Positions 379 to 27,769 of a DNA stretch of 64,000 bases are shown one piece after another. The DNA comes from Limisphaerales bacterium (lineage in GTDB: Bacteria > Verrucomicrobiota > Verrucomicrobiia > Limisphaerales > JAYPXF01). The translations under genes were made by a program, and so were the position numbers. Within the stretch, counting starts at the first letter, position 1. Each line of letters starts with the position of its first letter. The stretch covers positions 7,189 through 71,188 of the forward strand of contig JBLFYM010000002.1 in the NCBI GenBank assembly GCA_047608975.1, read 5' to 3'. Under the pieces are notes generated by a model that saw nothing but the letters and a program-made list of their open reading frames with translations, was not told the origin of the DNA and ran no database searches.

Positions 379-1352
379 AACGTCTGCTTCTCCTTTCGAT
401 ACTGGCAGTGGCAGCATTATGCCGAGCGGATGAACTTCGACCTAATTTTGTCCTTATTTTGGCGCATGATATGGGCCGTGATTGGATCAGTTGCTACGGA
501 GCAGAACACCAGACACCCAATCTCGATCGAATTGCGGCCGAGGGAATTCGCTATGACACGGCGTGGAGCATGTCCAATGCTGAATTCTCCCACAAATCCT
601 TGATCTTCGGTCGCTATCCCAGTCGGCTTGCGAAGGGACAACCGTCCTTCGTGGAACTCTTGACCAAGGCCGGGTACCAGCGGGAAGACCACGACTTCGA
701 CCGCGAGTTCAAGCTTCCGAACAAACGGCCGTTCCTACTCCTCTGCCAACTGCCGTCTCCCAGCGGGGACTTCGCCAAGCACGTCAAACGAGTCGACGAT
801 CTCGTCGGGGATCTGGCCCGTCGCACGGCAGACAACGATACGCTCCTGCTCTTCACCAGCTCTGGCGGTTCAGCGGTATCGGGCAAGTTGAACGAAAATG
901 CCTACCCTGTCGGCAAGGGCGCAAAGGCGGATTGGGGAGCCCATGTCCCGTTCATCGTCCGCGCGCCATTCCTGAGCCAGGGCGACCGCGCCTCACGGGA
1001 TCTGATCGACTTCACCGACCTGTTCCCAACACTCGTCGAACTCGCCGGAATTGAGCAACCCAAGGAACTCAAGTTGGACGGGATCTCCATGGTGCCCAGC
1101 CTGCGCGGTAGCGACGATCCGTTCGATAAACGCAACTGGATTGTCTCCGAAACCGTTGGCTTTCGCATGGCCCGGGACTGGCATCACATCCTGGATACCA
1201 ACGGCAGATTCCACGATTTGGACAGAGATCCGCTACAGGAGCGCAAGGTCAGCAGACAGGACAAGCAGGCCCCTCATCGCCGTCAGCGCCTTCAGATGAT
1301 CCTCGACCGATTTCCGAACAACGCCGAAGCCATACTTGGGGCCTTTCGCTGA
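375..1352 (+). CDS. Sulfatase-fold protein lacking the catalytic motif (probable pseudo-sulfatase), secreted
   Basis: Signal peptide, RPNFVLILAHDMG, TPNLDRIAAEG, HVPFIVR, DFTDLFPTL, LDGISM. The CxPxR position reads AEFSH. Confidence 0.75.
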   Translation: MKRLLLLSILAVAALCRADELRPNFVLILAHDMGRDWISCYGAEHQTPNLDRIAAEGIRYDTAWSMSNAEFSHKSLIFGRYPSRLAKGQPSFVELLTKAGYQREDHDFDREFKLPNKRPFLLLCQLPSPSGDFAKHVKRVDDLVGDLARRTADNDTLLLFTSSGGSAVSGKLNENAYPVGKGAKADWGAHVPFIVRAPFLSQGDRASRDLIDFTDLFPTLVELAGIEQPKELKLDGISMVPSLRGSDDPFDKRNWIVSETVGFRMARDWHHILDTNGRFHDLDRDPLQERKVSRQDKQAPHRRQRLQMILDRFPNNAEAILGAFR

Positions 1353-1436
1353 AATGGACAATTGGGCAAAATCGAATGGGTTTCTTGGAAGATGAAACAC
1401 CTCGCGTGTTCGTGACAATGTCCTACAAATCACACT

Positions 1437-2315
1437 ATGAAATTACTCAAACCATTGCTGCTGCTCGCCCTGTTGCTGGTCACGCCAGCCAGCGGAGCTG
1501 ATCGGAAGCCTCACGCCGTCTTTCTGCTCGGCACACTGCATTATTCACCTGAGCTCACGATGCCGGTCTTTGCCAAGGAATTGGAACGGTTTGGTTTTCG
1601 CACGACTTTGGTGCGGGGCGAGGGCAATCCCGAAAAGAAGACCGAGAATGTGCTGCCCAACATCGGGGTGTTGAAGGATGCGGATGTCGTGATCTTCTTT
1701 TCGCGCTTTATGAAACTGCCTGATTCCGAGTGGCAGCTGATTGAGGATTATCTCAAGTCGGGCAAGCCGGTCATCGGGCTACGCACGGCGAATCACTCCT
1801 TCAAATACCCGAAAGATCATCCGCGCTTCGCCTGGAACGATGGCTTCGGGCGTCGGGCCTTGGGCACACCCTACGTCGTGCATCAGAGCAGCGAGACGCA
1901 GATCAAGGTCGTGGCCGAGAATGCTGACCATCCGATCATGACGCATGTGACCAAGCGTGAATGGGTTTCGCCGGGCACGCTGTATCTCGCCCAATTGGAG
2001 CGGGGCTGTGTGCCGCTCCTGATGGGAAGTGGCAAGGGCAAGGCCCGTCTGCTCAAAAAAGCGTTCGGTGAAATTCAGGTGAAGGAGTTCGAAACCGCGC
2101 CGGTTGCCTGGGCGTGGGTGAATGAATGGGGTGGCAAATCCTGCTACAGCTCGCTGGGTCATCCGGGCGACTTCGCTGAAGAGTCCTTCAATCGCATGCT
2201 GCTGAACACGATTTGTTGGGCCGTCGACAAACCGTTGCCGCCCAAAGATGCGAAGATCAATACTTGGCAGATTGAGCGCGTTGACAAAAAGAAACGGCCA
2301 ACGAAAAAGAAATGA
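1437..2315 (+). CDS. ThuA-like (class I glutamine amidotransferase-like) domain protein, secreted
   Basis: Signal peptide, GKPVIGLRTANHSF, PVAWAW, YSSLGHPGDF..ESFNRMLLNTICWA. Confidence 0.75.
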   Translation: MKLLKPLLLLALLLVTPASGADRKPHAVFLLGTLHYSPELTMPVFAKELERFGFRTTLVRGEGNPEKKTENVLPNIGVLKDADVVIFFSRFMKLPDSEWQLIEDYLKSGKPVIGLRTANHSFKYPKDHPRFAWNDGFGRRALGTPYVVHQSSETQIKVVAENADHPIMTHVTKREWVSPGTLYLAQLERGCVPLLMGSGKGKARLLKKAFGEIQVKEFETAPVAWAWVNEWGGKSCYSSLGHPGDFAEESFNRMLLNTICWAVDKPLPPKDAKINTWQIERVDKKKRPTKKK

Positions 2316-15515: not shown

Positions 15516-16058
15516 CTTCCCGCCATCAAGACGAAGTCGACAGAGGGAAAGGTAGTCTGGCTCACAGGCTTTTCTGCCGCCGGCAAAACGACCTTGGCAG
15601 TGGCCCTGCATGAACGACTCACCGCGAACGGCGTGGCAGCGAACCTGATCGACGGCGATATTGTACGCCAAGGACTCTGCCGGGATCTTGGATTCAGCCG
15701 CGAGGACCGCGCTGAGAACGTGCGGCGCGTGTCGGAGGTTGCCCGACTGATGGCTGATGCAGGTCTTTACTGCATCGTCGCGCTCGTGTCTCCCTATCAA
15801 GATGATCGGCTCGCCGCGGCCAAAATCGTCGGGGAGCCGCGATTCTACGAAATCTTCGTCGATGCCCCGCTGGACGTTTGTCGCAGCCGGGATCCTAAAG
15901 GTCTCTACAAGAAGGCGGATGCGGGCGGGTTGTCGGCCTTCACGGGCGTTTCCGACCCCTACGAACCGCCGCTCTCTCCCTTTCTTCATCTCCACACAGA
16001 TTCGCTGTCGGCAGAGGACTGCGTCGGGTTGCTGTTCGCCGCTGTCGTCAATTCGTGA
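15516..16058 (+). CDS. cysC: Adenylyl-sulfate (APS) kinase; start codon uncertain
   Basis: In-frame VVWLTGFSAAGKTTLA P-loop (15552-15599) upstream of the ORF-track start; DGDIVRQGL..DLGFSREDRAENVRR, RDPKGLYKKA, FTGVSDPYEPP. Confidence 0.88.
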   Translation, partial: LPAIKTKSTEGKVVWLTGFSAAGKTTLAVALHERLTANGVAANLIDGDIVRQGLCRDLGFSREDRAENVRRVSEVARLMADAGLYCIVALVSPYQDDRLAAAKIVGEPRFYEIFVDAPLDVCRSRDPKGLYKKADAGGLSAFTGVSDPYEPPLSPFLHLHTDSLSAEDCVGLLFAAVVNS

Positions 16059-17857
16059 AATCTGCATTGCAAAAAATTCGCACCATGCTGCAGATCGAGC
16101 GCACGTTGGGTCTGGTCTGGCGGGCGGGCCGATCGTGGGTTGTGGCGGGGCTGCTGCTCTCGGTTATTCTCGGGGTCATCCCCTTGGCCGCCCTCTGGCT
16201 GCACAAACTGATCATTGACACCGTCACCCGCGCGAATTTCGACACGGATGAAGCCGGGAGAGCGGTAGTCGGATTTGTCATCGTATTGGGGATCATTGAA
16301 TTGATCGCGTTGCTCTGCCGGCAGATCAGCAGCTATCTGACCGAGGAGCAGGGGCAGATCGTTCAGGACCACGTCGCCGACCTCGTTCACACGAAGTCAA
16401 TCGAAGTCGATCTGGCATTCTATGAGAACGCCGAATACCAGAACACCCTGCACCGTGCCCAGATACTCGCCCCCACTCGCGCGGCAAACTTTGTGCAGTT
16501 GCTCAGCCAGATCCTTCGCAACGGCCTTTGCCTCGTTGCGGTCTTTGGTTTCTTGGTGACGTTCCATTGGGGACTTGCGCTGATGCTTCTCCTGGCTGTG
16601 CTGCCCGGGCTCTTCGCCCGCCTACAGTCGGCCGACCGGATGTTCGAGTACCAGAAGGAGACCACTGAGCGCGAGCGTCTGGGCTGGTATTACCACTCCA
16701 TGAACACGCAGAACGCCAGCGCGAAGGAAGTCCGAATCTTTCAGCTAGGGGAGCTGTTCCGTCGCTGGTACCGGGATCTTCGCCGGCAGATTCGCGAGGG
16801 GCGTATGCGCCTCGCCCGTCGGCGGGTGATCATCGAATTCGGCGTCCAATGTGGTGCGACGCTCGCCCAATACGGGGGTTACCTTTATGTCGCGATCAGG
16901 ACAGTTCAGGGCGACTTTACACTCGGGGACCTGGTCATGTTCTACCAGGCTTTCCTGCGGGCGCAGACCTTCCTACAGCAGCTGTTGCAGGCCCTCTCCG
17001 GCCTCTACGAAAATAATCTTCTACTGGGGCAACTGTTCGCCTTTCTCGACACCACCAACGAGATCTCTTCACCCGCTGTACCGACCGCGTTGCCCAATCC
17101 AGAGGAAGCGCGGGTCGAATTCAACAACGTCCGCTTTGCCTATCCCGGCAGTCGGCGAGCGGTGCTGCACGACGTCAACCTCACGATCAATCCGGGCGAG
17201 CATATTGCCATTGTTGGCAAAAACGGATCAGGCAAGACGACTCTCGTAAAACTGCTGTGCCGGCTATACGACCCGACCGATGGCCAGATCACACTGGGCG
17301 GAAGCCCGCTGGCGGTATTCAATGTCGCCGACTACCGGCGGCAATTCAGCGTCCTCTTTCAGGACTATCTGCAGCATCCTCTGTCCGTCCGGCAGAACAT
17401 CTGGTTCGGGGACATTGTGAAAGCACCCGGATCCGGCCGGGTCGAAGAGGCGGCGAAGCTCACCGGTGCGGATGAATTCATCGCGGACCTGCCGAAGCAG
17501 TTTGAGTCCACGCTGGGTCGGCGCTTTCAGGAGGGCGAGGAACTCAGTCAGGGCGAATGGCAAAAGATTGCGCTCGCGCGCGCACTGCAGCGCGATACCG
17601 GCTTTGTGGTCCTCGACGAACCCACCAGTTCAATGGACCCGGAGGCCGAGTATCGGATTTTTCAGCAGTTCCATAAACTCACACGTGGCCGCACCGCGAT
17701 CCTCATCAGTCACCGCCTCAACACCGTGATGATGGCCGACCGCATCTACGTGGTGGATGAAGGCCGGATCATCGAAACCGGTTCCCATCAGGAGCTTCTC
17801 GCCAACGGCGGCCACTACGCCGCCCTCTTCGAAACTCAGGCCAGCAACTTCCGATGA
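16055..17857 (+). CDS. ABC exporter, fused permease/ATPase (lasso peptide D-type; no C39 peptidase domain)
   Basis: About 6 TM helices, Walker A GKNGSGKT, LSQGEWQKIALARA, VLDEPT, ISHR; GTG start overlaps the cysC stop. Confidence 0.9.
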   Translation: MKSALQKIRTMLQIERTLGLVWRAGRSWVVAGLLLSVILGVIPLAALWLHKLIIDTVTRANFDTDEAGRAVVGFVIVLGIIELIALLCRQISSYLTEEQGQIVQDHVADLVHTKSIEVDLAFYENAEYQNTLHRAQILAPTRAANFVQLLSQILRNGLCLVAVFGFLVTFHWGLALMLLLAVLPGLFARLQSADRMFEYQKETTERERLGWYYHSMNTQNASAKEVRIFQLGELFRRWYRDLRRQIREGRMRLARRRVIIEFGVQCGATLAQYGGYLYVAIRTVQGDFTLGDLVMFYQAFLRAQTFLQQLLQALSGLYENNLLLGQLFAFLDTTNEISSPAVPTALPNPEEARVEFNNVRFAYPGSRRAVLHDVNLTINPGEHIAIVGKNGSGKTTLVKLLCRLYDPTDGQITLGGSPLAVFNVADYRRQFSVLFQDYLQHPLSVRQNIWFGDIVKAPGSGRVEEAAKLTGADEFIADLPKQFESTLGRRFQEGEELSQGEWQKIALARALQRDTGFVVLDEPTSSMDPEAEYRIFQQFHKLTRGRTAILISHRLNTVMMADRIYVVDEGRIIETGSHQELLANGGHYAALFETQASNFR

Positions 17858-19005
17858 TTTTCGAAGACGATCCTGAACTGACATTGCTGGTCCGGCTGCT
17901 GCGAAATTCGATGGCCGGCAAAACAGCGGAGGATTCCTTGTGGTCTTCGGTATTCAGCAAATCCTATTTTTTGAAGCTGGTCCGGCGTCACCGGGTCGCG
18001 GCATTCCTCGCCAGCCGAGCCGACACGGCTTCACTGCCTTCCTCTACTCAGAACAGCTTGGCAGACATGAGTGCCGCGAACGCAGTCAAAGCCCTGTTAC
18101 GCACGCGGACGCTAATTGAACTCGGCAAGCGGCTGGAAAACGCGAACATCCCGTTCCTCAGCGTAAAAGGCCCGATGTTGGCGCAGCGGCTCTACGGCGA
18201 TGTGGGGGGGCGTCATGCTGGCGACCTTGATTTTCTCATCGACTCGGAACATGTCGCGGCAGCGGACGGATTGATGCGCGAGTCGGGCTGCCGGCGGAGT
18301 TCACCTAATTTCGATCTTAGCCCGCGCCAGTGGCGCGAGTACCAGATTATTCGACACGAGTTCCAGTATTTCAATCAAGAGGGTATCCGCATTGAATTCG
18401 GCTGGCGACTCGCAGGACTAACAGGGACGCAGTTTGACGAACTGTATGCGGCGCATCGCGAATCGCAGTTTGGCGGAATTTCCATTCCACGACTTCCGGC
18501 AACCACCGAACTGCTGCACCTCTTCGTGCATGGTGCTGGCCATGGTTGGTTTCGTCTCTTCTGGCTCCTCGACATCGCTCTCCTATTGCGACGCGATCAT
18601 GACTGGGAGGCGTTGATGCGCGAAGCCCGCCGAACACGAACCGAGCACTGCGTCTGGCAGGGGGCGCGACTGGCTGAAACGATTTTTGGAGTTGAGCTTC
18701 CAGCCAGCATTCGTCCTCCAGAGAATCGCCAAGGGGTAGTCGATTGGCTGGTCAATGACGCTATTCGCCAGCTGCGGGCGGACGAAAAACACCATTCCAC
18801 TCCGATCAGCTTGTTGCGCGATGCTCTGTATCTTCTGCGCTTGCGTCCCGATCGGACCGCGCGCGCCGCTCTCGTCCGCCCCCGGCTTTGCTCACCAGAA
18901 AACTGGCAGCGCTTCCCGCTGCCAGATCAATTTTTTTCCCTCTACTATCCCGCTGCGCCGTTCCTTTGGTCATGGCGACGTATTTGGCGAGCAGATGATC
19001 CCTAA
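17854..19005 (+). CDS. Nucleotidyltransferase family protein (NTP_transf_5-like, lasso-cluster type)
   Basis: VKGPMLAQRLYGDVGGRHAGDLDFLI, LHLFVHG..H.WFRLFWLLDI; ATGA overlap with the ABC gene. Confidence 0.85.
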   Translation: MIFEDDPELTLLVRLLRNSMAGKTAEDSLWSSVFSKSYFLKLVRRHRVAAFLASRADTASLPSSTQNSLADMSAANAVKALLRTRTLIELGKRLENANIPFLSVKGPMLAQRLYGDVGGRHAGDLDFLIDSEHVAAADGLMRESGCRRSSPNFDLSPRQWREYQIIRHEFQYFNQEGIRIEFGWRLAGLTGTQFDELYAAHRESQFGGISIPRLPATTELLHLFVHGAGHGWFRLFWLLDIALLLRRDHDWEALMREARRTRTEHCVWQGARLAETIFGVELPASIRPPENRQGVVDWLVNDAIRQLRADEKHHSTPISLLRDALYLLRLRPDRTARAALVRPRLCSPENWQRFPLPDQFFSLYYPAAPFLWSWRRIWRADDP

Positions 19006-20298: not shown

Positions 20299-21741
20299 TC
20301 AGCGGGGAGATGCCGGAATCGTCGTCTGCGTTTCGAAACTATCAAGACCGAGCAATTTGCTGTCAGTGGAATTGGTTCCTTCGATGACCGGCATGGGACG
20401 AAAATCCAACCATTCGTTCACCGGGATCTTGCCTTCTGGCGGATAGTAAATATGACCGGAGCTTATCAAGGAACCCAGCCAGAGTTCCGATTTCCGGGCG
20501 ATAAGGCCATCGACGATGTGAAGATCGTAGACCATGCCGAAGCGGGCCTGCGGGTGTTCAACCTTTCTGCCATCGACGACTCCGGTGTATATGTAAACCA
20601 CACCCTTGGTATTCCCCGTTTCGATCCGCACGGACTCCAACGGCACATCCGCTTTCCAAGACTGTCCCTTTTCCACCGGTGTAAATCGAAAGACGTTTTC
20701 CGCGGAATCCAACGAATCCCCCGGGTTCAGCCATTGGGTCGACAAGAAGACTCTACCCATGACGCGATCTGAGAAGAGGATCGGGCTCGCACCCTTCGCC
20801 TTTTCGATGCGACATCGGAGTTTCACCCCTCGCGCCGGCAACGCATTCATCCATTCCATCCGATTGCCGTCGGCATCGACCAGAGACACGTCGAGAGTCG
20901 CTGTCAGGTAGAAACCTCCGTTGAACAAGGCCGGGGAGCGTTCATCATTTCCACGGAAATACACGCCTCCCAATCTGGCCGGATGCATGGGGCGCGGTGG
21001 TAGCGGAGCGCTTTTTCCGCGAATGAATCGCTCAAGGTTCGTCTCTTCACGCAATCGTTCCCGGTGCTTGGCTGAATACGTGGCTTGCAGATGCCCAATG
21101 GACACATGATGATAAATGCCAATTCCCATGAGCGCGAAGAGGGCCGTAACAAGAGCGTAGTGGGACAAATTCAGAGCTAGGGCCCGGGTCATCAGTTTGC
21201 CGCCGGGCTCCGTGGGATTCCCCCTACGATGTTCGATCACAAGAATGGCAAAGAGGAAGAGCAGATAAGTGTGAACCAACCATCCAGTGCTCAGGTAGAA
21301 CCGGTTCCATCGATCAACAAGCTGACCCACGATAGGCTGCAGGTGATTCGGATTCAGCACCTTTTCCTGTGACCAGGGAGCCCCGGCCGCCAACCAGGTC
21401 TTGAGATGGGCTATCTGAGCAATTGTAAGGGGTTCGGCATCACGAGGCATTCTGTGATCCGGATCTTCTGAGATGATTCGTTGATAGAGTTCGCTCTCCT
21501 CAACTGAGGAAGACAGAATCGGAAATCCGTTTCCGCTTCGGCGCCGTGTAAACCGTTCCTCATCGATCCTGAAATTGCCAAGCTGTCGTTCCTTGCCATG
21601 GCACGAGATACAGTGCGCTTCGAAAACCGGAAAAACATGAGTCTCGAAATCCGTCGCCGATTCTCCGGTTACTGCGAATGCGAGCAATATCAACATCACA
21701 GTGGTGACAATGTAACGGCTGAGTTCCTGTCGCTGTTTCAT
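20299..21741 (-). CDS. Planctomycete-type cytochrome c (PSCyt1) domain membrane protein
   Basis: Signal peptide, DFETHVFPVFEAHCISCHG..SELYQRI..RMP..LKTWLAAGA, two TM helices, soluble C-terminal domain; probable start MKQRQ at 21741. Confidence 0.75.
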   Translation of the reverse strand: MKQRQELSRYIVTTVMLILLAFAVTGESATDFETHVFPVFEAHCISCHGKERQLGNFRIDEERFTRRRSGNGFPILSSSVEESELYQRIISEDPDHRMPRDAEPLTIAQIAHLKTWLAAGAPWSQEKVLNPNHLQPIVGQLVDRWNRFYLSTGWLVHTYLLFLFAILVIEHRRGNPTEPGGKLMTRALALNLSHYALVTALFALMGIGIYHHVSIGHLQATYSAKHRERLREETNLERFIRGKSAPLPPRPMHPARLGGVYFRGNDERSPALFNGGFYLTATLDVSLVDADGNRMEWMNALPARGVKLRCRIEKAKGASPILFSDRVMGRVFLSTQWLNPGDSLDSAENVFRFTPVEKGQSWKADVPLESVRIETGNTKGVVYIYTGVVDGRKVEHPQARFGMVYDLHIVDGLIARKSELWLGSLISSGHIYYPPEGKIPVNEWLDFRPMPVIEGTNSTDSKLLGLDSFETQTTIPASPR

Positions 21742-22021
21742 GGTTTTGCGTATCGCCGTTCTCTCGACATTACGATCCCAGAGAATGTATCGGAGCCGTT
21801 GCCCTCCACAGGAAATTGGCAGAGCAGCAGATGGAAACCTGTCGGCATAGAAAGAAAGCAAGCTTAGTCGAAGGCGATATCATGCGGGCAACGAATAATA
21901 ACTGCAACTTGGTGGCTGCGGCTACTTTGATTCCTGAGCGAACGTACCCCAGATGCTGCCGAGTTCTGAACTCACAACATTCTGATCGTGTCCTGAAAGG
22001 AGATCTCGTAGCCTGATAGAG

Positions 22022-22528
22022 ATGAACCGAGCAGACGGTGTGATTGTCATTCTGCTGGTCTGGCAGTTGCTGATTCTGCTGGTCCAGTTCCCCCTCCCGC
22101 CGATCAGAAAACTGATCAATCGCTTCCCTCTGAATTTGTTTCCCCGGTGGTCGGTTTTTTTGGGACCGCAGACTCACCTGCGACTTTCTTATCGGGAGAA
22201 GAACACCACGGGACAGATTGGCGAATGGATACAAATCTCATCCTCGGCACCTCGCCATTGGTGGTCATTTTTCTGCAATCCCGCCTGGTATAGTGATTTT
22301 GGTTTCCGGTGTCTGATGCTTCAACTGTTGAGGAGGTATGAAGGCTACTCAAAATTCGACGGAGCGATTGACGAACTTATGTGGTTTCAGGCATTGAAGA
22401 ATTGTGTTGCTCAGCAAACGGATGGGATGCGGACCTCGGAGTTCCAGTTCAGGATTCATAGGGACTTCGGATATTTCGATGGACGGGAACCCATGGAAGC
22501 ATTTCGATCAGGATACCTGCGGCGATGA
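22022..22528 (+). CDS. Membrane-anchored protein resembling the linaridin LinL/CypL (SdpA-like) family
   Basis: N-terminal TM, FPRWSVF.P, L.YR....G..GEW, R.WW..NP, FQFRI, FRS near the C-terminus; matches my recollection of the LinL pattern, with diverged motifs. Confidence 0.55.
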   Translation: MNRADGVIVILLVWQLLILLVQFPLPPIRKLINRFPLNLFPRWSVFLGPQTHLRLSYREKNTTGQIGEWIQISSSAPRHWWSFFCNPAWYSDFGFRCLMLQLLRRYEGYSKFDGAIDELMWFQALKNCVAQQTDGMRTSEFQFRIHRDFGYFDGREPMEAFRSGYLRR

Positions 22529-23352
22529 TGGCCCAGATGCTGGAAGATCCATTCGTTTGCCTGGAGTGGATCACGCGTCTGCACGGCTTCGGGGTGGTGT
22601 TGATAACCTTCGAGCGCCTGGCCCACTGGCGGGAGTATGCAGAGGCAGGGCGACGGTCTTGGTCGGTGGCTTCTGCCGGGCGCAAGAGGCTTCCGAAGAT
22701 CCCCGGTGTGAGCTGGTTGTTCGGGTTCCCCATTTTCCCTTATCTGCTGCTGATCCGCACTTTGGCGGGAGCGACTTTGATGTTCACGGTCCATCGATCT
22801 CCAGCGAGTGTGATCGCGGTCGTGGTCATTTGCGTGACCATGATCGCCATGGATCTCAGGGAATCATGGTTTGTGGACAGCATATCCAGTCGGCTGCAGG
22901 CGATGATTTCCACGGTCCTGTGTTTGCAATTGCTGGCGGTGGATTCTCACCGGGTCGCGGTGGGAGTGGTGAGCTTCATCGCTGTGAACACCTCGCTCAG
23001 TTACCTGTTGTCAGCAATTAGCAAGTTGAGCGATGTGGATTGGCGCAACGGATCGAAGGTGTATCATGTCCTTCAGGGTCGGTTTCACGGTTCTGAAGGG
23101 CTTGCTGGTTATCTCAGTGGTCGAAGTTTTTTAACCCGTGTCATGACATGGGGAGTTTTGGGATTCGAGTTCGTATTTCCGCTGGTGCTGTTTCTTGATT
23201 GGCCCGCTTGTATGCCTCTCTTGGTTGGAGGACTGTCGTTCCATCTGATGAACAGATTGCTGCTGGGAATCCCCGGATTTACTTTGGTTTACCTTAGCGC
23301 GTATCCCGCGATCGTTTATGTCAGTCGCCTGCTCGCCTCAAGCTGGAGATGA
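22525..23352 (+). CDS. HTTM-like multi-pass membrane protein resembling linaridin LinG / CypH N-terminal domain (SdpB-like)
   Basis: ERL...G..SW, Y..SAISKL...WRNG, FEFVFP, FHLMN..LLG...F...YPAI.Y; about 7 TM helices; ATGA overlap with the previous gene. Confidence 0.65.
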   Translation: MMAQMLEDPFVCLEWITRLHGFGVVLITFERLAHWREYAEAGRRSWSVASAGRKRLPKIPGVSWLFGFPIFPYLLLIRTLAGATLMFTVHRSPASVIAVVVICVTMIAMDLRESWFVDSISSRLQAMISTVLCLQLLAVDSHRVAVGVVSFIAVNTSLSYLLSAISKLSDVDWRNGSKVYHVLQGRFHGSEGLAGYLSGRSFLTRVMTWGVLGFEFVFPLVLFLDWPACMPLLVGGLSFHLMNRLLLGIPGFTLVYLSAYPAIVYVSRLLASSWR

Positions 23353-23370: not shown

Positions 23371-23405
23371 AAAAAAAGGCGACTGCTTATTGCAGTCGCC
23401 CTTTT
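23371..23405. terminator. Bidirectional intrinsic terminator
   Basis: AAAAAAA-GGCGACTGC-TTATT-GCAGTCGCC-CTTTT between the convergent HTTM gene and the lasso precursor. Confidence 0.85.
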
Positions 23406-23422
23406 GAATTATTGGAAATTAA

Positions 23423-23563
23423 CTAGGAAGCGCTAGTATTTGCCGCACCGCCATCACCGCCTGCCGTCGCGTTCATCTGGGTGATCTCTGAAACAACAGC
23501 GGAGTTCCATTCAGGGTCGGTCCAAACTTTCTTTTCTGACGTATCCGTCTCAATTTCTTGCAT
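23423..23563 (-). CDS. Lasso peptide precursor (A), 46 aa: MQEIETDTSEKKVWTDPEWNSAVVSEITQ-MNATAGGDGGAANTSAS
   Basis: ATG at 23563; leader WxxP motif (WTDP), Thr at -2, Asp at core position 8, C-terminal Ser; directly downstream of the cyclase and followed by a terminator. Confidence 0.85.
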   Translation of the reverse strand: MQEIETDTSEKKVWTDPEWNSAVVSEITQMNATAGGDGGAANTSAS

Positions 23564-23601
23564 GCGCGCATTTTTAATCGCAAAACATGCTTCCGTCAAG
23601 C

Positions 23602-23633
23602 TTTTGTCGACGGAAGTTTTTGTCGACGGAAGT
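23602..23633. repeat. Perfect 16-bp tandem duplication upstream of the precursor
   Basis: TTTTGTCGACGGAAGT x2; an inverted partial copy CTTCCGTC lies at 23590-23597. Confidence 0.85.
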
Positions 23634-23673: not shown

Positions 23674-25593
23674 TCAAATCCCACCGTATTGTCGGAGGAA
23701 TGAAATCAGGTAGACCGCGCGCGGCACCATCTGAAGACCGGCGAGGTTTTCTCGATTACTGCCTCGATTTCCAGTCATTGAGAGGTTGGCAAGTTCCCTA
23801 AGCTTCCCGATATCGATAACGTCGTGAATCGGATCGGTCTTCGAAATTGCCGCCAATTCCGATCTTACCGAGGGGATCTGTTTGTTGTACTTAACATGGT
23901 AGTCGGGTGAGAAGGGCTCCTTGGTCGTCCGCTGACGAATTTTTTCAGGCAGAAGCCCTCTCATCGACTGCCGAAGCAGATTTCGAGAGTATCCGTTGTT
24001 GAGTTTGTGTTCGAGCGGAGCCTGTAAAGCAAAATCGAGAATGTTCTTTTCCCAAAAGGGGTAAGTAATCGAGACGGACTCATAGTTTACGAAGTGGTTT
24101 CGCGGGCGAGAGAATCGAAGTTTATTGACCGTATTTAAGACCGCTTGCCGGTGTCTGGTCTGCGGAACTTGATTGATTAATAATTCGCGCTGCATTTCTG
24201 CCAACGGTTTCTCTCCATGCCGCTGCACGAAATCATCTCGAAGAAGCCGAGCCGCAAACAGTGGGCTATGTCCCAGCCCGCGGGCAGAATCCAGCGACGC
24301 GGTGACGAAGCCCGGCAGCAGTGGGCGTATGATCCGGCGCTTGATCAACGACCAAACCGCGGTTGATTCCGTTTTTGAGAGGGATCTGAGCTCGCGAAAA
24401 AGCCTGCCCCATTTCCCCGTCAGGAACCAATCATAGAGCACCTCAGTGCCGTGTGTACTGGGACCGAACTCTGCATATGCCCCATCCAGTATGACGCGTG
24501 CGCCCAGATTTCGACTCTGATCGGCAAATTCTGAATAAAGATAGTGGCGGGTGGTGGACTGCGGTTCTTCGCTGCCCCAGACCATGCGATCGATGTTGTC
24601 GAAAGGCCCGCGCGCATCGGCAAACGCAAAGTGTTGCTCGATGTCCGGCCGGTTGGCGAACTCCCGGATGAATTCCATTTCGTCGACTGCCCCTGATCGA
24701 TCATCTGGACGCAGAGCCACCGAGAGTGTCTTGAGTTTGTCACCGGGGTTCTGCATTGCTGCCGCGCAGCCTACAATGGCTGACGAATCCAACCCTCCGC
24801 TGAGGAGTGCAACGCACGGTTCAGTTGCTCGCATGCATCGTTTTACCGACCGGAGGATTTTGTCCCGCATTTCCTCCATGCAGTCAGCAGCGTTCATGGG
24901 TGATCCGCTAGGTGCAGTGAAATCCCAATAAGTTCGAGTGTGCTGCGAGTTGGAACTTACCGTGAGAACGCTGGCTGCGGGCATAAAGAAGACGTCCTTG
25001 AAGTAACTATCAGCGCCTCGTTCAAGCTGAGAGCCAGGGCTGATCAATCCCGCAATCATGGAGAGATCCAGTTCAAGGGAAATCCCCGGTAGTGCCCGGA
25101 TGGCTTTCGCTTCGGAGCTGAAGGCGAATAGTCCGCCGCGGTTGATGAAATGAAAACTCCGGGTGGCCAAATGGTCAGTGACGCAGAACAACTTGCGCTG
25201 CTCGGAATCCCACACGACAACCGCGAACTCTCCTTCAAGATGTTCGGGGGTGCCTTCGTCCCATTTTTGCCAGGCTTGCAAAATAAACCAGGCGTCGGGC
25301 CGGCCCCGAAGGTCTGATGGTTCGAGGCAGAGTGCCTGCGCCAGTTCGGGGCGATTGTCGATGCGGGCATCGGCGACGAGTAGGAAGCGGCCGTCAACGG
25401 ACGCGAGGGGTTGACTCGAATCCAGATCTTCAGGTGTGACCCAAAGCGATGCACAGCCGATCCCAATAGGACCGTTAGTCAGGCAATTGCTGCCGTGAAT
25501 CGCCCGGTGCGCAAGGGCAGAGCGCATCGCTTCAAGAGCTTCCCGGTCGGCAGGTGCCCCCGAGGTGTTAAAAAATCCGAATATTGCGCTCAA
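23674..25593 (-). CDS. Lasso peptide cyclase (C; asparagine synthetase-like macrolactam synthetase)
   Basis: N-terminus MSAIFG lacks the Ntn Cys1; DARIDNR, LEGEFA, LLSGGLDSS PP-loop, YPF, R.LLR.SM.GLLP..IR.R..K; adjacent to PqqD-like and precursor genes. Confidence 0.9.
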   Translation of the reverse strand: MSAIFGFFNTSGAPADREALEAMRSALAHRAIHGSNCLTNGPIGIGCASLWVTPEDLDSSQPLASVDGRFLLVADARIDNRPELAQALCLEPSDLRGRPDAWFILQAWQKWDEGTPEHLEGEFAVVVWDSEQRKLFCVTDHLATRSFHFINRGGLFAFSSEAKAIRALPGISLELDLSMIAGLISPGSQLERGADSYFKDVFFMPAASVLTVSSNSQHTRTYWDFTAPSGSPMNAADCMEEMRDKILRSVKRCMRATEPCVALLSGGLDSSAIVGCAAAMQNPGDKLKTLSVALRPDDRSGAVDEMEFIREFANRPDIEQHFAFADARGPFDNIDRMVWGSEEPQSTTRHYLYSEFADQSRNLGARVILDGAYAEFGPSTHGTEVLYDWFLTGKWGRLFRELRSLSKTESTAVWSLIKRRIIRPLLPGFVTASLDSARGLGHSPLFAARLLRDDFVQRHGEKPLAEMQRELLINQVPQTRHRQAVLNTVNKLRFSRPRNHFVNYESVSITYPFWEKNILDFALQAPLEHKLNNGYSRNLLRQSMRGLLPEKIRQRTTKEPFSPDYHVKYNKQIPSVRSELAAISKTDPIHDVIDIGKLRELANLSMTGNRGSNRENLAGLQMVPRAVYLISFLRQYGGI

Positions 25594-25638: not shown

Positions 25639-25938
25639 TTATCTCGGTTCGTTCCGGACGATGATTCCCTCCGCCGCCCACTCCCCAAATATGCGGCGTA
25701 CAGATTCCAAACATTCCGCTGGCGTGATTTCGTATTCGGAAGCCAGTTGCCGGCTGATCTCCTCGGCCGAGCAAGGGTGTTCCAGTAGTTTCCAAATCGC
25801 TGCGGCAGTGCCGTTCAAGTCGTAGTAGTTACCTTTTTCGACACTCATCAGGGCCAGATCCCCCTCCCCCAAGCCTGCCGCAATGAGGTCTTTTCTTCCA
25901 TATTGGATGTCCTGTCCGACGCCGTCTTTCTCGTCCAT
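25639..25938 (-). CDS. RiPP recognition element, PqqD-like (lasso B1)
   Basis: LMSVEKGNYYDLNGTAAAIWKLLEHP....I...L..EYEI....C...V. Confidence 0.9.
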   Translation of the reverse strand: MDEKDGVGQDIQYGRKDLIAAGLGEGDLALMSVEKGNYYDLNGTAAAIWKLLEHPCSAEEISRQLASEYEITPAECLESVRRIFGEWAAEGIIVRNEPR

Positions 25939-26030: not shown

Positions 26031-26882
26031 TCAGATGTCGATTTCAGCAAGGTAACCGAACCGTGCCATCTCGTCCCGATTCCCTTCCACGATCGCGGCG
26101 ACCTGCTTGTGAGAGAGAAGTTTTTTCCACTGTCCCGTTTTGCCGGAACGAAAAAACGGTCTTCCAGAGGCCAGGGTCTGGTTGAATCCTTCATTGCGTT
26201 CCCGTGTGCGCAATTTATCGAAACTCGATTGCTCGATCGCCCATTGGAGACGCTTTTTGTCCTCTGGGAGGCCGATGAAACGAAGCACTTTTGAGAATTC
26301 TTTCTCTGGTCCGGACAGCATATCTTCATAGCGCAGAATCAGGACCGGGAATTCCGGCGAATCGACCCAGCTTCTGACGTGTGCGCCCCAACTGAGAAGC
26401 AGCTGGGGCAACTGCAGGGCGGTCCTGCGCCGCTGATCCGCCAGCGTGCGTTCCTCATCACCCATGCCCGAAATCGCCTCGTCGATCGAGGTCCCTAAGT
26501 GATGCGCCCATGAATGAGCCACGTCCAGCGGGTTTCGCAGCAGATAGATCGCCCCATGGGTGACGTTCGCCGGGATGAGGCGTTCACCGCCGGGGACGAG
26601 ATGATTCGCATCGTGAATCTTGAGGTAATGCGCATCCTGATTTCGCGTTCCAAGTTGGCGATACACCTTCGGTCGGAGATGCGCGATCTCATCCGGGTTC
26701 ATCTCGGAAGAGGATAGCCCAGTGACGTCATCGAAGATTCGCCGATAAGCCGCCATCGGCTCACCCAGCAAATCGTTGAGAGATTCAGGTGCTTCCCGGT
26801 AGTGCCGATGATAGGCGAGGAACGCGCGAAGCCACGTGTTTCCGGATTTTGGATACGAAGCCAACCACCAGATACCAGCCAT
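26031..26882 (-). CDS. PAPS-dependent sulfotransferase
   Basis: 5'-PSB motif LASYPKSGNTWLR, K.H, 3'-PB motif RNPLDVAHS, RYEDM, FFRSGKTGQWK. Confidence 0.92.
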   Translation of the reverse strand: MAGIWWLASYPKSGNTWLRAFLAYHRHYREAPESLNDLLGEPMAAYRRIFDDVTGLSSSEMNPDEIAHLRPKVYRQLGTRNQDAHYLKIHDANHLVPGGERLIPANVTHGAIYLLRNPLDVAHSWAHHLGTSIDEAISGMGDEERTLADQRRRTALQLPQLLLSWGAHVRSWVDSPEFPVLILRYEDMLSGPEKEFSKVLRFIGLPEDKKRLQWAIEQSSFDKLRTRERNEGFNQTLASGRPFFRSGKTGQWKKLLSHKQVAAIVEGNRDEMARFGYLAEIDI

Positions 26883-27769
26883 TACGCGTTGTCCCGTTCA
26901 ACCAATCGAACAATTTCATCCAATTGGAAGGGTTTGTAGGGGCGCGAAATCCGGCCGAACCTGACGTGTGGAAACAGTCCGGCGATTCCTCTGAAGCACG
27001 CTTCCTCGCATCCCATGGCTTCGGCGAATTGAAGGCGATAGATAAAATGAGGCAGTTCTCGGAAGGCAGTTCTCCCATCCATCTGGCATACGGTGACCTC
27101 GGGGACGTTGCCCGGTTGGAGAAAATACACCTGCCGGAGGGGGACGGATTCTCCGGACGCCGAGCCAATCGATACTCGATATTTCTCAACGGTCTGACGG
27201 ACACGATCGCTCTCCACTTTTTCCCTTTCGAGAGCCTCAAGGCTGTCGGGACGAAGATAAACGCTGGGATAGGTGGGACGGACTACCGGCCGGGTCTTGT
27301 CTGAATCGATCACAGTCTGATCATCGGCGAGTACTCGGTAGTCTCGCTGATGAAAGGCTGCTGCCAAGGTGGATTTCCCGGCGCCGCTGTGCCCGCAAAA
27401 AACTACTGCTCCCCGCTCCGTCGCGACTGCGCTCCCGTGCAATGCAAACAACCCCAACTGGTGGAACAGGGCTCCCATCACCGGTCTGAGAACGACAATG
27501 CGCAGGTCGTGGTCAGAAACACCCTCGTTCCGATCAATCGTCACCACCCCATCCGCGATCAAGATACGTGCCACCAGAGTGTTCAATTGAATGATCCCGG
27601 GCTTGCCCTCGTAGATGGGACCAGATCGAGTGGGGCGATCCAGTTTTTCCGGTACCGCGCCAAAGCGTATCAGCACGTCGGAAGTGCGAGAGCTGAGCGG
27701 GAGTTCCGGAAACTCCAGTTCCGATTCAATGACGATTTGATAGGCCTCGTAACGGTAATTTGCTGCCAT
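26882..27769 (-). CDS. HPr kinase-like lasso peptide kinase
   Basis: LHGSAV, Walker A GHSGAGKSTLA, LADD; N-terminal YEAY...IESE..FPEL as in lasso-associated kinases; TAATG coupling to the sulfotransferase. Confidence 0.85.
   Translation of the reverse strand: MAANYRYEAYQIVIESELEFPELPLSSRTSDVLIRFGAVPEKLDRPTRSGPIYEGKPGIIQLNTLVARILIADGVVTIDRNEGVSDHDLRIVVLRPVMGALFHQLGLFALHGSAVATERGAVVFCGHSGAGKSTLAAAFHQRDYRVLADDQTVIDSDKTRPVVRPTYPSVYLRPDSLEALEREKVESDRVRQTVEKYRVSIGSASGESVPLRQVYFLQPGNVPEVTVCQMDGRTAFRELPHFIYRLQFAEAMGCEEACFRGIAGLFPHVRFGRISRPYKPFQLDEIVRLVERDNA

Follow-up and report, generated by a model that had tools for sequence, protein, structure and literature searches.

Lasso peptides are valued as scaffolds that withstand heat and proteases, a robustness attributed to bulky residues in the tail or to disulfides. 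The window (by which we mean the whole stretch of Limisphaerales DNA under analysis, 64,000 nucleotides) harbours, next to a lasso cyclase gene, a small open reading frame for which an original prediction, made from the letters alone, proposed an unusual lasso core: a ring closed between Met1 and Asp8 and a tail with no bulky residue to lock it. The locus raises the question of whether this frame is a genuine lasso precursor gene and, if it is, where its product would be cut and what could hold its tail in the ring. To our knowledge, a post-translational group serving as lasso stopper has been raised for pseudomycoidin but never demonstrated.

Gene A and Its Reading Frame

The frame, gene A below, and the elements assigned to it are the following (window coordinates):

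23423..23563, minus strand: precursor gene A, 46 codons and a stop (from translation and homologues)
23563-23477, minus strand: leader of precursor A (recognition motif WTDPEW, residues 14-19; Thr28 at -2)
23476-23426, minus strand: predicted core of precursor A, with a Met1-Asp8 ring, a 9-residue tail and Ser at its end
23371..23400, minus strand: intrinsic terminator of A, a 14-bp hairpin (23378-23400) and then a run of 7 T
23570..23599, minus strand: sigma-70-like promoter match just 5′ of the ATG (TTGACG, 18-base spacer, AAAAAT), a consensus match only

Translation of window 23563..23423 on the minus strand yields MQEIETDTSEKKVWTDPEWNSAVVSEITQMNATAGGDGGAANTSAS and then a stop. The WTDP and EITQ elements ascribed to the leader are both present in it, the codon of Met30 begins at 23476 and that of Ser46 ends at 23426, in agreement with the core coordinates that had been proposed, and the predicted ring residue Asp8 is found as Asp37 of the precursor.

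Gene A begins 111 bases past the stop codon of the lasso cyclase gene, on the same strand. It is the sole small frame in the 12-32 kb region that pairs a leader motif with a plausible core; loose matches to the leader motif number 51 in the whole window, and those other than A sit inside unrelated frames. The terminator hairpin 3′ of A is stable relative to shuffled sequences (z = -5.58; 0 of 200 shuffles fold equally well). Since the intergenic region between the cyclase gene and A folds no better than shuffles (z = -0.88), we claim no attenuator there. Two sigma-70-like sites were found in the region of A and 2.4 were expected, which is chance level.

The TTG of the promoter-like site doubles as an alternative start codon of A, and in homologue entries gene callers have called the frame as 46, 58, 72, 77 or 81 codons. 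A 16-base tandem duplication (window 23602-23633, minus strand) lies between the cyclase gene and A, just 5′ of the promoter-like site. It is missing from one variant contig and from the variants whose longer frames stay open; it alters the upstream frame and leaves the 46-codon gene unchanged. Since the duplication breaks the longest readings, the start is likely ATG 23563 or TTG 23599. The leader motif and the core are the same under either choice.

Contigs from four of six metatranscriptome libraries, which may contain DNA, were compared with the window and gave 15 contig pieces. These fall on the cyclase gene C, on B1, on the end of the SdpB-like gene and on the junction between C and A. 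The junction is bridged by a 565-base contig (23522-24102; from an RNA library, possibly DNA-derived) that runs from the end of C 42 bases into A. It represents a strain variant that lacks the 16-base duplication and differs in eight other letters; the difference at 23552 leaves Ile4 unchanged. The stretch 23402-23502, which holds most of the core-coding sequence (23426-23476), is without any contig from the four libraries. As such libraries may carry DNA and a contig does not reveal where a transcript ends, the pieces neither establish nor exclude expression of A. The window stretch itself is present near-whole (at least 0.80 of sampled words) in 18 DNA runs labelled as seawater or ice metagenomes, seven of them flagged as possible sources, from studies that may stem from few campaigns.

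Genes Surrounding A

The genes below were assigned in the neighbourhood of A:

16055..17857, plus strand: ABC exporter D, overlapping the N gene by 4 bases
17854..19005, plus strand: PsmN-type nucleotidyltransferase N (PF14907, 6.4e-51; GDLDF motif)
22022..23352, plus strand: a 168-residue ORF and a 275-residue SdpB-like membrane protein, overlapping genes convergent on A
23674..25593, minus strand: lasso cyclase C, asparagine-synthetase-like, 639 residues (PF00733, 3.9e-34)
25639..25938, minus strand: B1, PqqD-like leader-recognition element, RRE (PF05402, 4.8e-18)
26031..26882, minus strand: PAPS-type sulfotransferase (PF00685, 7.7e-28)
26882..27769, minus strand: HPr-kinase-like kinase K (P-loop GHSGAGKST; weak HprK matches)
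28064..28519, plus strand: B2, transglutaminase-like leader peptidase (PF13471, 7.9e-22)

The operon runs in the order kinase, sulfotransferase, B1, C and then A, with B2 divergent from it. B2, whose gene lies on the opposite strand 295 bases past the operon, matches the lasso family NF033537 over the cut-off (2.6e-23); C matches NF033535 at 1.9e-105 with 353.9 bits, under the 525-bit cut-off, and B1 matches NF033536 at 6.7e-14, also under the cut-off. A small precursor gene thus lies beside a cyclase, a B1 of the RRE type and a B2, as in class II lasso clusters, and the PF14907 nucleotidyltransferase adds the enzyme typical of the pseudomycoidin kind.

The family matches of kinase K are weak and all under the cut-offs (HprK_rel_A 6.7e-10, PF07475 9.7e-5). 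The protein is 33-37% identical to the kinases of related clusters, and the kinase gene is conserved beside sulfotransferase and lasso genes in five other genomes. The nearest solved relatives of the sulfotransferase are TEG12, Teg14 and StaL (7.7e-16 to 4e-9), which are glycopeptide-antibiotic sulfotransferases. The stop codon of the kinase gene and the start codon of the sulfotransferase gene overlap by one base (window 26880-26884), and this overlap suggests translational coupling of the two.

Gene N is located ca. 4.4 kb from A on the opposite strand, in an operon with the ABC exporter gene, and its product is 41% identical to the copy in a syntenic cluster, L027. The SdpB-like protein matches TIGR04033 at 3.6e-7, far under the cut-off. 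The same pair of 168-residue ORF and SdpB-like gene adjoins N in L027 (11346-12565, minus strand), and these two genes may serve export, immunity or maturation in such lasso clusters, a role so far overlooked. Between the exporter and N genes and A there is also a gene (20299-21861, minus strand) whose 520-residue product has a planctomycete-type cytochrome c domain (PF07635). It has no counterpart in L027 and probably stands outside the lasso pathway.

Homologues of A and Related Clusters

The frame proved to be conserved. Five clusters of close homologues (five of five candidates) were retrieved from a collection of 5.8 billion proteins, and their members give eight distinct cores. In these eight close variants the leader is invariant or nearly so, and ring positions 3-5 and the middle of the tail vary. 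Asp8 is fixed; the Gly-Gly (or Gly-Ala) in front of it, the next two Gly and the third-last Ser are kept, and the C-terminal residue is Ser, or Thr in one variant. This combination of conserved leader and variable core is the pattern of a RiPP precursor gene.

A profile built from precursors with Trp at -16 retrieved seven more from the same collection. Altogether we collected 27 related precursor sequences with 18 distinct cores, and counts made over them are not independent because of kinship. A profile search of 1.84 billion representatives gave three matches at E <= 0.001, among which P0002 is the only precursor. The other two, P0007 (149 aa) and P0008 (1224 aa), were rejected, since they match profile positions 8-23 only, in repeats. 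Four metagenome loci from a scan with the precursor alignment were also discarded as chance WT[DE]PEWN matches inside long unrelated frames.

Cyclase C is at most 38% identical to any protein in the 5.8-billion-protein collection. Among 61 related genomes, 27 match it at E <= 1e-20, with the best other match 30% identical; in a sample of 401 genomes of the phylum, the only match at E <= 1e-50 is the window's own genome; and a search of genome contigs gave two loci at 26-27% identity. The cyclase searches of the protein collection, the related genomes and the phylum sample found no orthologous cluster. The sulfotransferase, searched against 400 genomes sampled in the order, matches in five other genomes, where it sits in clusters of kinase, sulfotransferase, B1, (B2) and C; the L027 cluster also retains N, the 168-residue ORF and the SdpB-like membrane protein. 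Precursor genes follow the cyclase gene in L027, L028 and L042/L050, and further ones are found in L043, L044, L046, L047 and L030. The examined parts of L045, L029, L035 and L032 gave none.

One of these loci, L043 (G516:C63), carries three tandem precursor genes near a kinase-sulfotransferase gene pair (1229-2284, minus strand). In these precursors position -2 is occupied by Val or Ala, the motif lies at -17 and the ring is Gly1-Glu9; they resemble the Ile/Val(-2) class reported for Bradymonadales.

One could argue that A is a chance frame that happens to lie beside a lasso operon. The absence of a match among Pfam and NCBIfam families, of an obvious ribosome-binding site upstream and of transcription established by RNA-library contigs would all agree with this. 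Such a frame would have to account for the position of A, its terminator, its leader motif and its conserved Thr and Asp, for the conserved-leader, variable-core pattern across eight close variants, and for the equivalent genes that follow the cyclase gene in related clusters; it is barely credible. Since A adjoins the cyclase gene, ends in a terminator, is the only precursor-like frame in 12-32 kb and has homologues, we consider it more than a chance frame. The claim that the small ORF is a lasso precursor is thereby borne out by its place next to the cyclase gene, its terminator, its leader motif and homologues in which Thr and Asp are fixed.

Cleavage Register and Ring

We infer the cleavage site, the ring and all modifications of the product of A. 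Three registers would allow a ring to form:

Met1-Asp8, with Thr28 at -2 and Trp at -16
Asn1-Asp7, with Gln29 at -2, Thr at -3 and Trp at -17
Gln1-Asp9, with Ile27 at -2 and Trp at -15

The first of these had been proposed by the Thr(-2) rule, and it is the one best supported by the relatives, with Thr at -2 in all 27 sequences and Asp at +8 in 14 of 18 cores. Every one of the 27 combines this Thr with a Trp at -16, the Thr being exactly 14 residues past the Trp, and the four cores without Asp at +8 have Glu at +7 or +8 as the acidic ring residue. In precursor A itself, Thr28 and Asp37 constitute the single Thr(-2) solution, with an 8-residue ring, and both residues are invariant in the eight close variants.

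The residue two positions after the Thr, which would be residue 1 of the core, is Met in seven of the 14 Asp8 cores, Ala in two, Ser in two, and Gly, Leu and Asn in one each. Among the eight close variants it is Met in seven and Ala in one (P0138, with its siblings' leader but Ala in place of Met30), so a small first residue is the exception in this family. In the precursor of L050, whose gene comes right behind a kinase-sulfotransferase-B1-B2-C operon, Thr+2 is Ala and Thr+3 is Gln. P0143, P0146 and P0147, which are known here from protein sequences alone and share one common leader, have Gly, Ala and Leu, respectively, at Thr+2 and Asn, Met and Met at Thr+3. The commonest first residues of lasso peptides are given as Gly (62%), Ala (16%) and Leu (7%) (PMC7549694). 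Since Gly, Ala, Leu and Ser, found at Thr+2 behind sister leaders, are ordinary first residues, the Thr(-2) register is favoured.

The rules for calling the cleavage site were also compared on 11 precursors from the window and the related loci, eight of which carry the Thr. The Thr(-2) rule gives exactly one ring of 7-9 residues in each of the eight. A fixed Trp(-17) rule gives a 6-residue ring in L044a, and Ile1 rather than Gly1 in L046.

The leader motif itself bears on the spacing. In WTDPEW of A, the W and P fit the published motif [Y/W]xxPx[L/V/I/F/A] (PMC13381572) and the sixth residue, Trp, is outside the set; relatives with the same spacing have L there. A spacing of -17 is treated as constant in PMC10368454. 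It is not universal, since the crystal structure of the PbaA leader described in PMC13381572 has W-15, P-12 and L-10, and WxxP typifies paeninodin-like leaders in that source.

Cleavage by B2 after Met30 would instead give a 7-residue Asn1-Asp7 ring with Thr at -3. This register restores the canonical W-17, P-14 and aromatic -12 (PMC10368454), and a smaller ring needs a smaller plug, stability being reported to rise as the ring shrinks (PMC7549694). Furthermore, Asn31 is nearly invariant and residue 30 varies (M, A, S, N, K), as expected of a fixed position 1 and a free position -1. However, Thr at -3 has no precedent in the literature examined, the register leads to the 6-residue ring of L044a and to Ile1 of L046 noted above, it turns the first residues G, A and L behind one leader into N, M and M, and the -17 spacing on which it leans is contradicted by W-15 in PbaA. 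We retain the Asn1-Asp7 ring as an unlikely alternative because Asn31 is nearly invariant: Asn occupies Thr+3 in 12 of the 14 Asp8 cores and in nine of ten alignment rows, across several leader families.

The third register, with Ile27 at -2, would have the cut after Thr28 and close a Gln1-Asp9 ring. Ile or Val at -2 is known in kinase-associated precursors (PMC10368454), and the three L043 precursors have Val or Ala there. In relatives with the same spacing, however, the position of Ile27 is taken by Gly, Asp, Glu or Thr and it is the -2 Thr (Thr28 in A) that is invariant, and the Val/Ala(-2) register of L043 goes together with W-17 and not with W-15. This register is thus highly improbable.

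We therefore regard the predicted Met1-Asp8 register as probable, judging by the relatives. It gives odd first residues in some of them, namely Asn1 in L028 and Lys1 or Glu1 in a sister group with Glu-closed rings. The small-first-residue rule is one of frequency, however, and no absolute one. Lassos with Trp1 and Tyr1 exist, and FusC tolerates changes at position 1 (bioRxiv 10.1101/2020.11.25.399105); since such lassos are known, Met1 is unusual but not mechanistically barred.

Two observations on position 1 and its neighbour may be added. In the Met1-Asp8 register, Asn31 (window 23473-23471) is conserved at core position 2 while position 1 varies, and we found no explanation for this. The sister precursors (L044 G516:C37, L056-L059, P0144 and P0145) have one leader type with the Trp(-16)/Thr(-2) spacing and Glu-closed rings of 7-9 residues; four copies lie in tandem at one locus. 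Their position 1 is predicted to be Lys in six, Glu in one and Ser in one, and Lys as a first residue would be likewise unusual.

A Tail without a Plug

The tail of A consists of Gly, Ala, Asn, Thr and Ser only, the largest residues being Asn13 and Thr14, so the description of it as plug-less holds. The same is true of its relatives. Among the 128 tail residues of the 14 Asp8 cores there are no F, W, Y, H or R and one K. The composition is G 36, A 21, S 21, T 15, N 12, L 6 and M 4, the remainder being Q 4, P 3, V 2, D 2, I 1 and K 1. The tail of the L050 core is another of this plug-less kind. The cores of the Asp8 clade are short (14-20 residues), with tails down to 6-7 residues in L028 and P0143.

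The C-terminal residue of A is Ser46, the residue expected there in a paeninodin-type precursor. It is Ser in nine and Thr in five of the 14 Asp8 cores, and Ser or Thr in all 18 cores. Other precursors from kinase-sulfotransferase clusters of the same genomes carry Y, H, F or R in the tail. It thus follows that the missing plug is a trait of the clade and not of the enzyme set, and that the kinase and sulfotransferase enzymes do not require plug-less substrates.

Lasso stability rises with the size of the plug and falls with the size of the ring (PMC7549694). By extension of this trend, an 8-residue ring should not be holdable by Asn or Thr.

Proposed Maturation and the Question of the Lock

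On balance, we lean towards A encoding a class II lasso peptide of the paeninodin type (kinase-associated, split B1/B2) that matures as follows. B1 would bind the WTDPEW motif and B2 would cut after Gln29, with Thr28 at -2. The cyclase would link the Met1 amine with the Asp8 side chain, giving the 8-residue ring. The kinase would phosphorylate the C-terminal Ser17 on the linear precursor, the PsmN-type enzyme would add a hexose to the Ser17 phosphate, and the sulfotransferase would sulfate some hydroxyl, candidates being the invariant third-last Ser, Thr14 and the sugar. The ABC transporter would export the product. Two features of the cluster weigh against this reading: the kinase matches its families weakly, and N is encoded 4.4 kb away on the opposite strand, beyond the cytochrome gene.

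Several of these steps have models in characterised systems. The kinases phosphorylate the C-terminal Ser of the linear precursor and not the threaded product (PMC8498205), and the BsfA kinase acts on Ser3 (PMC10368454). PsmN adds one or two hexoses to the C-terminal phosphate (PMC6993621). The original prediction had placed added groups on Thr14, Ser15 and Ser17 alike. Given these known kinase targets, a modification of Thr14 or Ser15 would be pure conjecture.

As no side chain in a 9-residue tail of this composition appears large enough to retain an 8-residue ring, the peptide should slip out of the ring in its unmodified state, as happens with purified pseudomycoidin. When produced in the absence of the kinase and N, pseudomycoidin has the behaviour of a branched cycle, and a Leu-to-Phe change restores the threaded lasso (PMC6993621). 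Zyubko et al. (2019) proposed bulky C-terminal groups as a third locking strategy for that peptide (PMC6993621). The idea that added groups form the steric lock is therefore a reasonable hypothesis for A, with a precedent, and one already in print for pseudomycoidin. We take a C-terminal phospho-(glycosyl/sulfo) group to be the most likely stopper: a bulky terminal group could serve in this way because the ring closes around a pre-folded tail and the group would be installed beforehand.

The ring may also form as predicted and leave a product that is branched-cyclic or freely unthreads, the added groups then being there for solubility, export, immunity or target binding and not as a lock. That none of the 14 Asp8 cores has a plug residue is what this would lead one to expect, the 6-7-residue tails of L028 and P0143 leave little room for a loop and a threaded segment, and purified pseudomycoidin behaves as a branched cycle (PMC6993621). 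Against this, no part of the machinery is missing and it is homologous to the one behind threaded lassos, every core keeps a Ser or Thr at its C-terminus, and the action of the kinase before ring closure makes a terminal stopper sterically feasible (PMC8498205). We see an unthreaded product as a real possibility but not the leading one.

A broader proposal, which we put forward tentatively, is that the whole clade, with Trp at -16, Thr at -2, a Gly-Gly-Asp closure, a tail of Gly, Ala, Ser, Thr and Asn and a terminal Ser or Thr, dispenses with side-chain plugs and is threaded solely by means of an enzyme-installed C-terminal phospho-glycosyl and/or sulfo group.

Novelty and Significance

Lasso clusters with kinase, sulfotransferase and nucleotidyltransferase genes have been noted since 2014-2016 (PMC4289311; PMC8498205). 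What appears to be new here is the precursor clade with Trp at -16 and a Gly-Gly-Asp closure in which no member has a plug residue, and Met also appears to be new as the first ring residue in the close family of A. Our literature search found no Met-initiated lasso, and supplements, including the RODEO and Kretsch data sets, may list such cores; one candidate report turned out to refer to Met13 instead. Within the openly readable papers that it covered, the search found no characterised lasso sulfotransferase either, and the literature on sulfation in PVC phyla that it covered yielded nothing on lasso peptides.

With its plug-less tails, short cores and full set of tailoring enzymes, the clade offers a clean natural test case for a post-translational stopper. 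If the proposal is true, it would bear out the proposed third way of stabilising a lasso, and with it would come the first ring to start with Met and a first role for a lasso-associated sulfotransferase. The clade could also reveal what the sulfotransferase found with these kinases across many phyla does. For genome mining, the results bear on the choice between Thr at -2 and motif spacing as the guide to the cleavage site, and on the range of first residues to be accepted.

Comparison with Known Systems

The A system is close to paeninodin, PadeA and PbaA, with which it shares split B1 and B2, a kinase gene, a WxxP leader, Thr at -2 and, as the expected kinase target, a C-terminal Ser (PMC8498205; PMC13381572). 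Paeninodin and its HPr-kinase homologue were described by Zhu et al. (2016), as reviewed in PMC8498205. Unlike this type, A comes from a different phylum and habitat (marine and ice metagenomes), has its motif at -16 and not at -15 with Trp as the sixth motif residue, and begins its predicted core with Met and ends it in a tail without a large residue. Its cluster has the order kinase, sulfotransferase, B1, C, A with B2 divergent, and a cyclase at most 38% identical to any protein of the collection.

Pseudomycoidin, from the psm cluster of Bacillus pseudomycoides, resembles A in its kinase, its PF14907 nucleotidyltransferase and its insufficient tail plug (PMC6993621). Its ring is Ala1-Asp9 and its tail is long, with Leu, His and Glu (PMC6993621), whereas A has a predicted 8-residue ring, a 9-residue tail of G, A, N, T and S, and a sulfotransferase in the cluster.

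BsfA of Bradymonas sediminis is likewise kinase-associated and from a Gram-negative, with a Gly-rich ring closing at Asp8, and its cleavage register, too, was deduced from motif spacing (PMC10368454). It differs from A in having Ile at -2, Y at -17 and a kinase target, Ser3, within the ring (PMC10368454); A has Thr at -2, Trp at -16 and no Ser in the predicted ring.

Finally, fusilassin, cellulassin and halolassin share with the predicted core of A a large first residue, Trp1 or Tyr1 in their case (bioRxiv 10.1101/2020.11.25.399105), from which it follows that cyclases can use a bulky N-terminus. In contrast to A, they come from actinobacteria, lack a kinase and have the ordinary kind of aromatic plug (bioRxiv 10.1101/2020.11.25.399105).
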